Shown piece after piece: positions 33,768 to 39,470 of a DNA stretch of 64,000 bases (within the stretch, counting starts at the first letter, position 1; each line of letters begins with the position of its first letter). Under the pieces are notes generated by a model. It had not been told where the DNA came from and did not search any database. It was given only the letters and a program-made list of their open reading frames with translations. The stretch comes from Anaerolineae bacterium (GTDB taxonomy: Bacteria > Chloroflexota > Anaerolineae > B4-G1 > SLSP01). Location: contig JAXDDP010000157.1 of assembly GCA_034676785.1 (NCBI GenBank), forward strand, positions 25,920 through 89,919. The letters are read 5' to 3'. Made by a program: the position numbers and the translations under genes.

Positions 33768-34160
33768 TCAATCCACGACGCGCTGCAGAGCTTCCAGGGC
33801 CGAGGTCAGCGCGTCTCCCATCGTCCGAAGCATGGTTTCGCGCGTCTGCAATGCCTGGCTGACCATGGACTGATGCATATCCCACACGGACCGGTCGATC
33901 TGATCATTCGCATCAACCGGCAGGCAGACCGTAGTATCACAGTCGAAGTCGATCCTGGTATATGCGCGTAGCCGGAGCTTGTCCGCCAGCTCCTGGTCTG
34001 TCAGATCCAGCTCTCCACCGGCAAGCGATCCGATCTGCGTGCTCGCCATGCTGAAAGTCCGCACCTCCAGCGTACTGATATCATCGACAAACGACTCGGC
34101 CTTGGCTGCCAAATCATTGGCGAACTTCTCGATCGCGTGCCTAAGCTCACCCTCACTCAT
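33768..34160 (-). CDS. Hypothetical 130-aa protein (protein D), homologous to the C-terminal domain of protease-like protein B
   Basis: The ATG at 34160 has GGGAGG 7 nt upstream. The 34208 and 34175 starts are less likely. Shared blocks with the protein B C-terminus are DISTLEVRTF/DIVTLDVKTY, LRAYTRIDFDCD/LRALTRVAFDGD and VWDMHQSMVSQALQTRETML/LWEIHKSMVEEAQQSRAKFL. No known family recognised. Confidence 0.75.
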   Translation of the reverse strand: MSEGELRHAIEKFANDLAAKAESFVDDISTLEVRTFSMASTQIGSLAGGELDLTDQELADKLRLRAYTRIDFDCDTTVCLPVDANDQIDRSVWDMHQSMVSQALQTRETMLRTMGDALTSALEALQRVVD

Positions 34161-34186
34161 CCCGTTTCCTCCCATAGTGGACCTCT

Positions 34187-34933
34187 CTAGGATGCGCCGG
34201 TAGGCCACTGCTCGAATTCCCTGAGAATGCTGCGCACATAATTGTAGACCGCAGGGATAAGCAGGACCTGCCCACCGGGCACAGACGCCTTTGCCGTCAG
34301 GGTCATCGCCCCTGAGGTTACGACACCGATCAGGCGCAAAAGCGCATGCCGAGACGCAAGCGCCAACCGCACGGCCTCAAGGTGCAACGCCATATCGAGC
34401 GCCGTGGCACCATCCAGCCACGCCGTCTCGTAATCACCTGTCCAATCGACTGTAGTGAGGGCAATACTGGTGCCCCCGGTCGTAGTCTCGATACGAGCGA
34501 AGTGGTGGATGAGACGCCTGAACTGCACCAGAAGGGCGTTCGCCCGTTCGTAGACCTCCTGATAGGCTGTCCCAGCCTCCTTGTCCAGGCCGTAGGAGAG
34601 TGCCGGGCTCTGCAACGTCGCAACCTCGGCCCATAGCATCGCTTCAGGGTCACTATTGCTCGCAGCGTAGGACAGCCTCGGGCTCAGACCCTTGAGCCGT
34701 TGCGTAATAGCCTCAAGATCCTCTTCCCATCGATCCACCTTCGCGCGCTGATCAAGCAATTCAGAACGAGCTCTCAGCGACGACTCCGGATGATCAACCC
34801 GCCAGACGAGGCCACGCCCATCATCGGCAGCCCCATAGGCCGTTGCAGCAGAGATCTCGAGGTCCCAGATGCCCAGGGGATCGTCGTTCTCGGGTGTCTC
34901 GAAACCGGAGAAAGTAAACGTCGATCCGGTCAT
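34187..34933 (-). CDS. Hypothetical 248-aa protein (protein C), no recognisable family
   Basis: Its ATG shares one base with the stop of the upstream gene (TGATG). It is predicted to be mostly helical, with no signal peptide and a moderately hydrophobic C-terminal segment (LLRLIGVVTSGAMTLTAKA). Confidence 0.78.
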   Translation of the reverse strand: MTGSTFTFSGFETPENDDPLGIWDLEISAATAYGAADDGRGLVWRVDHPESSLRARSELLDQRAKVDRWEEDLEAITQRLKGLSPRLSYAASNSDPEAMLWAEVATLQSPALSYGLDKEAGTAYQEVYERANALLVQFRRLIHHFARIETTTGGTSIALTTVDWTGDYETAWLDGATALDMALHLEAVRLALASRHALLRLIGVVTSGAMTLTAKASVPGGQVLLIPAVYNYVRSILREFEQWPTGAS

Positions 34934-37149: not shown

Positions 37150-37208
37150 GTCCACGCTCCTTATCCGCGTCCCGAATCAGGTTGCGGGATCAGTAAGACC
37201 TGCTACGG

Positions 37209-39470
37209 TCAACGAGACCGGCTCGGGCCTTTTAGAACATCCTGATCCGGAACAGGATCAGGCGTGCGCAGCCGTACTGCAGGATCACCAACCACGATGT
37301 AGCCGCGAGCGTCGTTGCTAGCCGTCCACAACTCAGCCAGGCGGTATGCATCTTCACGCGAAGGTGGATCGGCAAGCCGGTCGTAAAGATAGGTTAACTC
37401 GGTTGCGATTGCGGCGTGGCGCATATTGAAGAAATCGAGCGCCGCGCCCACCGGCTGGCCATCCAGCAGCCTCTCGATGGCGCTCGCATAGACCTCAATG
37501 TGTTCGCGTTTCCGGCTCTGCATGCCCTCGGGACGGTACATCGCCTCTGATAGAAAAGACAGACCCCAGAGCCGCTCGACGTGGCTGATCACTGCTAGGG
37601 CGCCTCGCTCCTTGAGAGCCAGCATCGCCTTGGGCAGTGCAGCAACGAACGGAGTAGCAGCAATCGGCGTAGCGCGTTGGCGGTACTCGGCGCGATGGTA
37701 GTCATCCGTCTGTGGTGTGCCTGCCCCATAGCATGCAAACAGGAACAGGATTGTGCCACGCAGGTTCACGCCCTCTGTAATATCTGCCGCTGATAGATAC
37801 GTATTGGGCGGTACTGTGCCACGCCTCGCTGGCCAGTTCTGGCACAATAGCGCGCCCTGCAAGTCACTTTGGCGTGGGTCGTCCGCGGGAAACTCCAAAC
37901 CGTGCGTCGCGGTGAACACCAATGCAGGCGCCGGAGTAAGTTGTAGGATTTTGAGGAGATTGCTCTTGGTCGTCTTCTCTGGCGCTATCCGGATGATCTG
38001 CCAGGGCGATCCCAACGTCCTGGCTCGAAAGTGCTGAGCCAACGGCGCAACCAGATGGTTGGAAGAAAGGCCTGTTGCCACGTCCCCGGGATGCTCGGTT
38101 CCAAAGAACACGAGCTGCGATCCCGCCTGGTCGGGATGCTCTTCGGCTGAAACCACATTGAGTGCATAGTTGTGGTATGCCTCGAGATCGTCACTGAAAT
38201 CGAGCCGCCCTGCAGCGTATTGCACATCCAGCTGGTACTGGAATTCAAACGGGATCTCTTCCGGACTTCCAACAATCAGCAAATAGTAGGGTACCCCGGT
38301 GCCTTTAGGGTCTGCTGGGTTGGCAGCGTCGGCATTGCGCGGTGGCCGCCGCAGGAAAGTGCTAGCAGTGTCTCCAGGACGAAAGCCATGACGGCCTGCA
38401 TAGAGCTTGTACAGGGAACCCGACTGCTGCTGTCGGCGGTTCAAGAGAGGAGCCAGTGCCTTGAGGATCGCCTGACAGCGGTCTTCAGCCATCGCTGCGG
38501 GGAAGATGACACCCCACCCGGACTCCTCCAACTTCCGAGGGTCGACCCAGGGCACCGTACCCATCTGCCCGGTGGCACTGCGCCGCAGTTCATCCAGCCA
38601 GCCACGCATCGCTTCGTGAACATCCTGTGCACGCAGTGGCTGCCGCACACGCCGCAGAGCAACCAAGACGCCGCGCAGCCCTGCCACGATCTCGTGCCAG
38701 GAATCGAATGTGCCCGCCACTGACAGAGCCTGGAGACGCTGCCGAGCTTCCGACATTCGCCCCCCGCCACGAAGTCCAGGTAGAGTTCCCAAGCCGTGAA
38801 CTAACGCTCGGAGGGGCGCCGTGATCACATCGACACCGGGCAGAACCTTCAACGAATCCAGGGGAAGCTCGTCCAGGGCTCGGCAAAACCCTTCGATCCA
38901 GGGCGATCGCAGAATGCTCTGTGCATCGACCGCCTGTGTCCCCTCACTGGACAGATACGTCCTCCGCAACACAACCAGTGCCTGGTCGAAACGTGATTCG
39001 AGAGTCGCGCGCAGGACCGAGGGATCTTCGTTTGTCTGATCGAACAACCATTGCGCCAGCGTACTGCCTTGACTCGAGGTGAGCGACTTCGCAATGCGAG
39101 TGAATGTCTCGACGGGCTCCTGCTGAAGCCTATCAGCGAGGATCTGGATATCTCCAGGAAGTGGCTGCGACTTCCCACCGAACAGAACAGTCAGGAGCTT
39201 TCGCGCCGACTCGCTATACCAGGTGTCGGGCGCTTGCCCGCCGGCCCTGAGAAAGCTCAGAATGTCCTTAACCAGAAACTCCACCATGGCCAGCACCTTG
39301 CGCTCGCCAGCAGCCCGGTGGCTAAGCTCGCGCTGGAGTTCTCGGAGCTGGCGCACGGCGCTGTAGCGATCGGCGAGGACGCGTTCAGTCAAAGCTTCAG
39401 CCGTCGCCGGCTGTAGCCCATACCCGCCCGTCGCACCGTTGATGCCGCTGAAGTAGAGTTTCTCGGTCAC
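37209..39470 (-). CDS. Clan CD (gingipain C25 / caspase-fold) cysteine-protease-like protein A with an about 300-aa helical N-terminal region
   Basis: A paralog of protein B. [32 protein letters not shown] (His codon 37902..37904). [13 protein letters not shown] (Cys codon 37731..37733). [11 protein letters not shown]. GTG start at 39470. No signal peptide. Confidence 0.85.
   Translation of the reverse strand: [753 protein letters not shown]

Follow-up and report, generated by a model that had tools for sequence, protein, structure and literature searches.

A clan-CD protease cassette with a shared d-domain in Anaerolineae, a candidate downstream arm of STAND-NTPase conflict systems

The four genes described here, A, B, C and D, form one tightly packed unit on the minus strand of a 64,000-nucleotide (nt) stretch of DNA from an Anaerolineae bacterium (GenBank assembly GCA_034676785.1, contig JAXDDP010000157.1, positions 25,920 to 89,919), the whole of which we refer to as the window. 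A and B encode paralogous proteases of clan CD, and C and D are small proteins which, together with the C-terminal tail of B, carry three copies of a single undescribed domain. Elsewhere the cassette is often operonic with genes for CHAT proteases and for nSTAND1 nucleoside triphosphatases (NTPases) bearing sensor domains, and a SIR2-like domain is often encoded too. On the strength of this linkage we read B-C-D, with A where it is present, as a proteolysis-controlled downstream arm of an apoptosome-like STAND-NTPase conflict or cell-death system, an interpretation that in our judgment stands about equal chances of being right or wrong.

That STAND NTPases are combined with caspase-type peptidases is already known from comparative genomics. 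Within the tools and searches used here, the B-C-D module itself, the domain shared by its members (named the d-domain), the C family and a short [FY]-G motif are undescribed. An earlier note, made from the sequence alone, had singled out the four genes as a candidate undescribed system, and no description of it was found in Pfam, NCBIfam, PADLOC or the literature; nor was any curated family, PADLOC model, PDB entry or literature account found that matches C, D or the module. The module adds C and the d-domain as protein families not recognised before, along with a separate cytoplasmic branch of clan-CD peptidases that occurs in at least 476 species genomes. Caspase-type proteases coupled to STAND NTPases are regarded as the bacterial origin of the cell-death machineries of animals and plants, and the module offers a concrete candidate for study, with a conserved protease, a conserved motif in disordered segments and three copies of a system-specific domain that may serve as substrate, inhibitor and effector.

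The d-domain and a recurrent motif in flexible segments

The final ~125 residues of B are homologous to D (E = 8e-14, with 33% identity), and comparison of the C family with the D family by HHalign gave a probability of 95.8% (E = 7e-9). The HHalign comparison was made with clean, non-iterated sets of C and D sequences; iterated jackhmmer searches, which merge the C and D profiles, were not relied on. From these two homologies we conclude that C, D and the tail of B share one domain, the d-domain, with three copies per operon. The earlier note had listed C and D as two small unknown proteins of no nameable family, a view that has to be revised, as each is a homolog of the other and of the C-terminal tail of B.

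The copy in B lies at 34936..35346 on the minus strand (residues 602-738, model pLDDT, the predicted local distance difference test, about 75-85), and its elements in the B model run in the order long helix, strand, short helix, beta-hairpin, long helix. D is a free-standing d-domain. A search of 1.84 billion representative proteins with a d-domain profile returned 452 clusters, in which the domain is always C-terminal and is carried only by B-type proteases, free D proteins, C-like proteins and split pieces consisting of a linker and a d-domain; in this search it was never joined to a foreign partner or another effector domain.

C has 61 homologs, none of them named. An N-terminal beta segment (FTFSGF...DPLGIW) is followed by three helices with motif-bearing loops, the d-domain (about residues 105-216) and a C-terminal helical hairpin with an invariant PGGQ turn (34244-34291, minus strand), the most conserved part of the protein. 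The hairpin is moderately hydrophobic, under the threshold for a transmembrane segment by hydropathy. The model of C is confident and mostly helical (pLDDT 84, predicted template modelling score, pTM, 0.82). A gasdermin, a toxin of the ClyA/Nhe type, a colicin-like pore-former and a mimic of a phage protein were all considered as identities for C and set aside, as its model has no significant fold match in PDB or among the viral proteins of BFVD, bacterial gasdermins included. Pfam and NCBIfam scans of C and D gave nothing significant, C has no match in PADLOC either, and a weak match of D to the tail of ZorA in PADLOC (E = 0.009 over 39 residues) is taken as chance.

Between the protease domain and the d-domain of B lies a disordered linker (35347..35562, minus strand; residues 530-601, pLDDT <50) that is rich in proline, glutamate and alanine and is hypervariable in both length and sequence across the 76 homologs compared. 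An 'ERPxI'-type element stands just past the protease domain (GPVDTGTITV, 35518-35547, minus strand). At the junction of linker and d-domain we found a short motif, [AVILSTD]-[FY]-G-[LIVF], which in B reads AVAFGL (35323..35340, minus strand). Of the 76 non-identical linkers, 45 have the strict form at this junction, whereas shuffled linkers yield 0.67 on average and never more than 4. It occurs only once elsewhere in the same linkers, where aromatic residues make up 1.4% of positions outside the motif; a looser form is seen in 65 of the 76. Similar [FY]-[GA] motifs sit in the three loops of C, as TAYGAA (34826-34843), LSYAAS (34658-34675) and LSYGLD (34583-34600), all on the minus strand, and are conserved in alignments with distant C homologs.

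Free-standing D proteins begin directly after the position of the junction motif, so that D resembles the piece of B that a cut at the motif would set free. At one surveyed locus (L057, 9989-11950), two genes naturally stand in place of B, one for the protease and the other for the linker, motif and d-domain. The [FY]-G motif is, in our inference, a candidate cleavage or docking site.

The A and B proteases

A and B are paralogs with 40% identity across 495 residues (E = 3e-97), as the earlier note had proposed, and the motifs that it quoted as shared between them are found where it placed them. The catalytic positions likewise agree, being H523 and C580 in A and, in B, H326 and C383 in the numbering of the 738-residue protein, equivalent to H328 and C385 in the open reading frame (ORF) track. 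A comprises an N-terminal motif (residues 5-18, [14 protein letters not shown]), a helical region (about residues 30-300) that only A-type proteins have, and the clan-CD protease domain (about residues 300-735), with no d-domain tail. B has an N-terminal motif, a two-lobed clan-CD protease domain (35569..36837, minus strand; about residues 105-527), the disordered linker and the C-terminal d-domain. The N-terminal lobe of its protease domain is alpha/beta ([15 protein letters not shown]); the catalytic lobe that follows carries the strand-His326-Gly and strand-Ala-Cys383 arrangement, with strands E320-324 and E377-381 predicted in the AlphaFold2 model, and ends in YVVLGDPA.

In an alignment of 50 family members H326, G327 and A382 never vary, and the conservation of C383 is at least 90%. 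Among 112 protease domains from 82 surveyed loci, the His-Gly/Ala-Cys dyad is kept in 77 of the 78 B-type domains, and all 34 A-type domains retain both His and Cys. From this conservation in both paralogs it follows that A and B should be active enzymes. The sole domain to have lost its Cys is the second B copy of locus L051 (12062-14122), where two B-type genes stand in tandem, one of them without the catalytic Cys (HS/SS).

These counts bear on a reading in which the cassette is a non-catalytic assembly, with the d-domains of B, C and D polymerising and the protease-fold domains acting mainly as scaffolds or adaptors. Three paralogous helix/beta-hairpin/helix domains per operon would suit such an assembly, as would the confident fold of C, whose shape has no known enzymatic relative, and some clan-CD relatives are indeed pseudo-enzymes, bacterial pseudo-orthocaspases being the topic of PMC6426788. 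However, the catalytic His and Cys and their adjoining Gly and Ala are kept near-perfectly in both paralogs over deep divergence, with loss of the Cys in just one of the 112 domains, and we consider a purely structural role quite improbable.

The AlphaFold2 model of B has a mean pLDDT of 84 and a pTM of 0.73, with core values mostly above 90. Foldseek against PDB returned 13 matches with E <= 0.001, every one of them a separase or TPR-CHAT (Csx29) structure, at probabilities of 0.99-1.0. Separase is the top match (5u1s_A, 9hms_C and 7nj1_A, E = 1e-5 to 5e-5), with TPR-CHAT close by (7y84_C, 7xsq_B and 8d9g_A, E = 2.6e-5 to 5.7e-5). The clan-CD fold that the earlier note had suspected is therefore borne out, by the model and its matches and by the conservation of the dyad among homologs.

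The B family has more than 3,000 homologs, nearly all from metagenome-assembled genomes (MAGs) of Anaerolineae or other Chloroflexota and all named hypothetical. Pfam, NCBIfam and PADLOC scans of A and B gave nothing significant: B shows a faint match to Peptidase_C25 (PF01364) over residues 423-526 (10.8 bits against a threshold of 23 bits, E = 0.28), A shows none in the Pfam scan, and neither matches CHAT (PF12770) at E <= 1. Among the 50 aligned relatives, eight match PF01364 and two reach the CHAT profile (E = 8.5e-5). The first protease domain of homolog P0044 (residues 84-420) matches PF01364 positions 104-374 with 91 bits (E = 1e-25), and P0095 passes with 53 bits. Searching PDB sequences with phmmer gave only chance matches to triose-phosphate isomerase, for A, and a profile built from the 50 family sequences found no separase and no real match there.

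The gingipain/C25 label given to A and B in the earlier note can therefore be kept in part. C25 is the nearest Pfam family for some relatives, and the context of the His-Gly/Ala-Cys dyad and the terminal 'GDP' block of A and B are common to C25 gingipains; A and B themselves, however, fall under the threshold, and no gingipain structure is among the 50 best fold matches listed for B. The same evidence bears on a reading in which A and B, with accessory proteins, are secreted proteases of the gingipain type that serve nutrition or virulence. In its favour, the protease domain of some family members is related in sequence to Peptidase_C25. Against it, simple hydropathy finds neither signal peptide nor transmembrane segment in A, B, C or D (no 19-residue Kyte-Doolittle mean >= 1.6), in agreement with the earlier description of A and B as cytoplasmic; both proteases lie below the C25 threshold; the best folds are those of intracellular separase and TPR-CHAT, with no gingipain among the 50 listed; and the module, whose operon partners are cytoplasmic, is operon-linked to cytoplasmic STAND NTPases. 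We regard the secreted reading as effectively refuted. The proteases make up a cytoplasmic branch of their own within clan CD, one whose sequences are related to C25 and whose fold resembles separase and CHAT, and they are functionally no gingipains.

The two intracellular enzymes that B resembles most in fold are instructive for both their likenesses and their differences. Separase (MEROPS C50) is, like B, a large intracellular clan-CD protease; it is restrained by a pseudosubstrate partner, securin, and cleaves itself in a disordered loop, to which the role that we propose for the [FY]-G motif in the linker of B would by analogy correspond. B nevertheless has no sequence similarity to separase, superposes on it with low TM-scores (template modelling scores, 0.23-0.25) and lacks its long helical N-terminal region, and the module is bacterial, operon-encoded and duplicated as A and B, with partners unrelated to securin. 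Craspase, the type III-E CRISPR enzyme in which TPR-CHAT (Csx29) acts on the substrate Csx30, is likewise an intracellular clan-CD enzyme with a pseudo-protease lobe and a protease lobe, and is encoded, as is this cassette, beside small and otherwise unannotated partner proteins. In Craspase, cleavage of one such partner at a specific position within a flexible stretch sets off a cellular response. Unlike Craspase, the present system has no CRISPR effector, and its controller, where there is one, is an nSTAND1 NTPase with a separate CHAT protease. Neither C nor D is detectably related in sequence or fold to any PDB entry, and B bears a putative substrate-like domain as its own tail.

Long relatives of A and B are tandem fusions of two or three protease-domain copies (P0044, P0084, P0095, P0104 and P0110), which suggests that A and B function in physical association, as a pair. 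A further feature is common to A, B and C, each of which has a strand-like motif, h-x-h-[SN]-G-h, within a few residues of its start: LYFSGI in A (39417-39458), LVFNGI in B (37072-37113) and FTFSGF in C (34901-34918). Its Gly is invariant, as G17 in the B family and G10 in the C family. The motif may be a shared docking strand, though its shortness leaves room for chance.

Genomic linkage and a model of activation

To place the cassette in its wider setting, ORFs and profiles were surveyed in 82 related loci, and relatives were sought by a scan of one genome per species, in which at least 476 of 185,579 species genomes carry them. Most carriers are Chloroflexota. The cassette is patchy in its distribution and, even in that phylum, not universal, and it is also found in Nostoc, Leptolyngbya, Acidobacteriota, an Egibacteraceae MAG and a Polyangia MAG; the hosts belong largely to filamentous or multicellular lineages. 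The four genes co-occur in other genomes, as the earlier note had proposed should be looked for, and they recur there in unrelated neighbourhoods. Two forms of the cassette were seen, A-B-C-D in the closer relatives and B-C-D alone in the majority of the distant ones, from which it follows that the conserved core is B-C-D and that A is a lineage-specific added paralog without the tail. The earlier picture of a self-contained four-gene system without a sensor does not hold up, since the core has three genes and A is an extra paralog.

Clustering of the flanking ORFs of the surveyed loci showed that in 39 of the 82 (37 when copies of one contig are discounted) genes for CHAT and nSTAND1 proteins are co-directional with the cassette, their stop and start codons often overlapping. 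The earlier statement that there is no NTPase sensor is thus correct for the window and incorrect for the family. The linkage takes two forms. In the first, a ~685-residue protein with CHAT and SIR2-like domains is followed by an nSTAND1 NTPase of ~1,150-1,600 residues with WD40 or TPR repeats; in the second, found for example in Nostoc and Leptolyngbya, there is one fusion protein of the kind CHAT-nSTAND1-CHASE2 or CHAT-nSTAND1-repeat. Overall, the sensor domains on the linked NTPases are WD40, TPR, HEAT or CHASE2, and a SIR2 domain is often present. Linked loci come from Chloroflexota, Nostoc, Leptolyngbya, an Egibacteraceae MAG and an Acidobacteriaceae MAG. Two more loci encode a protein with CHAT and HEAT repeats in which nSTAND1 gave no match at the threshold applied.

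This linkage is what leads us to see the cassette as an arm of a STAND conflict system. Conflict systems in which NTPases and caspase-like peptidases are brought together, with the peptidases as frequent effectors, are described as enriched in multicellular bacteria by Kaur, Burroughs, Iyer and Aravind (2020, PMC7159879) and Kaur et al. (2021, PMC8195603). The relatives of the cassette resemble these systems of Kaur et al. in being operonic with nSTAND1 NTPases, CHAT peptidases and SIR2-like domains and in their bias towards filamentous or multicellular hosts. They differ in that B has no recognisable effector-associated adaptor domain and that the window copy has no adjacent NTPase. We found no EAD-like adaptor motif common to the N-terminus of B and the STAND or CHAT-SIR2 proteins, and the linked STAND proteins start directly with the NTPase. 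Gingipain, C25 and separase go unmentioned, and the C and D families receive no account, in the passages of PMC7159879 and PMC8195603 to hand. PADLOC has no model for the CHAT/nSTAND1/B-C-D combination, and the neighbouring genes match only its generic SIR2, CHAT and repeat models.

Starting from what is directly observed, namely the architecture, homologies, catalytic conservation, fold class, motif enrichment and genomic linkage, we can propose a model of activation. In this model a clan-CD protease, be it B, A or the sensor-linked CHAT enzyme, would cut at the [FY]-G motifs in disordered segments. A cut at the end of the B linker would release the d-domain tail, and cuts at the three loop motifs of C would part its N-terminal helices from the d-domain and C-terminal hairpin, the C-terminal half that is the candidate effector. 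D, which resembles an already cleaved tail, probably pairs with other d-domains as a stoichiometric partner or inhibitor, so that the three d-domains would be mutually binding parts in the roles of substrate, inhibitor and effector. A and B would act as a pair. In the lineage of the window, the cassette would either use a sensor encoded elsewhere or have become independent of one.

A more specific version can be drawn up as a two-tier cascade, in which an apoptosome-like nSTAND1 sensor would activate an initiator CHAT protease, which would activate B (with A), whose cuts at the [FY]-G motifs would free a new-fold effector, made up of the d-domain and hairpin of C, from the inhibitory d-domains of D and the tail of B and so kill or arrest the cell. 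Two different clan-CD proteases also occur together in the type III CRISPR cascade from SAVED-CHAT to PCaspase (bioRxiv 10.1101/2023.06.23.546230), which suggests an initiator that acts on an executioner. The pairing of CHAT with B invites the same initiator-on-executioner reading, the cascade being here an inference. The sensor would differ, as a STAND NTPase in place of a SAVED domain that binds cyclic oligoadenylate, and so would the second protease, which unlike PCaspase is C25/separase-like and comes with a d-domain. If the cascade were true, C would found a new effector family and the system would be a close functional analogue of the route from apoptosome through initiator and executioner caspases to a death effector, widespread in Chloroflexota and present in filamentous cyanobacteria too. 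We offer it tentatively, as a version that is more doubtful than the general reading.

A number of observations weigh against our interpretation. Sensor genes are absent within 10 kilobases (kb) in 24 of the 63 informative loci, half of these 24 belonging to the window clade, and tblastn found no nSTAND1 in the window, which has no STAND or CHAT-SIR2 gene beside the cassette. This clade keeps the cassette in a stable housekeeping position between glgX and aro genes, across relatives 58-88% identical, which is atypical of defence islands, and the PADLOC models gave no significant match for A, B, C or D. The fold matches of B have low TM-scores (0.20-0.25), only the protease core superposing. 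C has no segment of transmembrane grade by hydropathy, and Foldseek of its model (best E = 0.24 in PDB and 0.34 in BFVD) reveals no likeness to a pore-former or toxin; because of these two results, its part as effector is a guess. The [FY]-G motif could be a docking or structural element instead of a cleavage site. The cleavage, interaction and phenotype steps of the model are proposals, which concerns the choice of protease for each cut, the role of C and the outcome, whether defence, death or regulation.

The main rival explanation holds that the cassette is a housekeeping or developmental regulatory module, domesticated in filamentous bacteria, in which A and B process C, D or other substrates in division, differentiation or stress and play no part against phage. 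Vertical inheritance at the fixed glgX/aro position in the window clade is what such a module would lead one to expect, and no sensor, mobile-element or defence genes adjoin the cassette in the window. The largely filamentous or multicellular hosts and the rank of separase as the top fold match of B point the same way. Parallels for such a role are separase with securin and HetF of Nostoc, a protease of the CHAT family that heterocysts require to differentiate and cells require to divide normally. However, outside the window clade the cassette is mostly operonic with nSTAND1 and CHAT genes and often a SIR2-like domain, a combination that is characteristic of conflict systems (PMC7159879). Its distribution among species genomes is also patchy. 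Linkers so variable, and components so often duplicated, fused or split, look more like those of a fast-evolving accessory system. We judge the regulatory module to be the leading alternative, though rather unlikely. Under the STAND-coupled reading, the lineage of the window, with its adjacent sensor lost and its housekeeping setting, may show the domestication or rewiring of a conflict module.

The locus in the window and neighbouring genes

The presence of four co-directional ORFs with tight junctions on the minus strand, reported in the earlier note, was confirmed from the ORF list, and the junctions were read directly from the sequence. Gene A (37209..39470, 753 residues) begins with GTG and ends with TGA at 37211-37209. 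After 59 nt comes gene B (34933..37149), listed as 34933..37155; as AAGGAG lies 7 nt ahead of the ATG at 37149, B is taken to start there and has 738 residues, the length of the database entry P0001. The stop of B and the start of gene C (34187..34933, 248 residues) overlap as TGATG. C ends with TAG, and a gap of 26 nt with GGGAGG leads to the ATG of gene D at 34160 (33768..34160, listed as 33768..34208); that ATG gives a D of 130 residues, and D homologs share the same start position.

The flanking genes are those given in the earlier note, a glgX-type isoamylase on one side and genes for chorismate mutase and prephenate dehydratase on the other. GC content is level throughout the region, and Rfam has no match over 33300-39800. 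The proposal of a promoter of the cassette's own at 39591..39619 fared less well: TTGCGG-17 nt-TATACT is present there, agrees with the consensus at 8 of 12 positions and was not called by the sigma-70 scan, whose sites overall are no more numerous than in shuffled sequence. Between D and the chorismate mutase gene stands a strong intrinsic-terminator-like hairpin (33382..33413, minus strand) with a 14-base-pair stem and a T run, likely the 3' terminus of the transcript.

Some 20 kb away from the cassette lies the only STAND-like gene of the window (11191..14451, plus strand), for a 1,086-residue protein with a CHAT-like domain, an AAA_16 STAND-type ATPase and TPR repeats, an architecture comparable to that of the sensors found next to the cassette elsewhere. 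The protein shares its CHAT part with the cassette-linked CHAT proteins (tblastn E = 1.6e-22, 25-32% identity). We do not claim it as the cognate sensor, as only the CHAT domain is related and the NTPase is of the AAA_16 type. Beside it, on the minus strand, lies a 1,034-residue ORF (14460..17564) with no Pfam match.

In other genomes, 10 loci (8 without duplicate copies of a single contig) encode an M23 peptidase with SH3 domains, secretable in appearance, immediately downstream of the cassette, among them L003/L019 (13350-18037), L034 (13187-16147), L030, L039, L046, L056, L057 and L077. In one genome this peptidase is followed by a contractile-injection-system cluster with Pvc16_N, sheath, gp19-like tube and CIS_tube genes. 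Four other loci (L040, L053, L058 and L060) derive from one cave-metagenome study, in short contigs with species-level names that include Caldilinea aerophila, Anaerolinea thermophila and, for L040 and L058, Desulfatirhabdium butyrativorans. The assignment of a Chloroflexota-type cassette to Desulfatirhabdium may be a binning error, and it is not counted as spread to Desulfobacterota.

Downstream of D, a promoter-like site (TTGACA-16 nt-TAGACT, 33601-33574, minus strand) and then the hairpin at 33413-33382 precede the chorismate mutase and prephenate dehydratase genes, and the segment 33382..33601 on the minus strand could be a leader or attenuator for these aromatic amino-acid genes. The 451-residue ORF listed at 32052..33407 on the minus strand is not a single gene: chorismate mutase is encoded in a different frame by a 142-residue ORF at 32927..33355 (CM_1, E = 1.6e-46), and prephenate dehydratase occupies the 3' part, at 32052..32900 (PDT, E = 5e-54).

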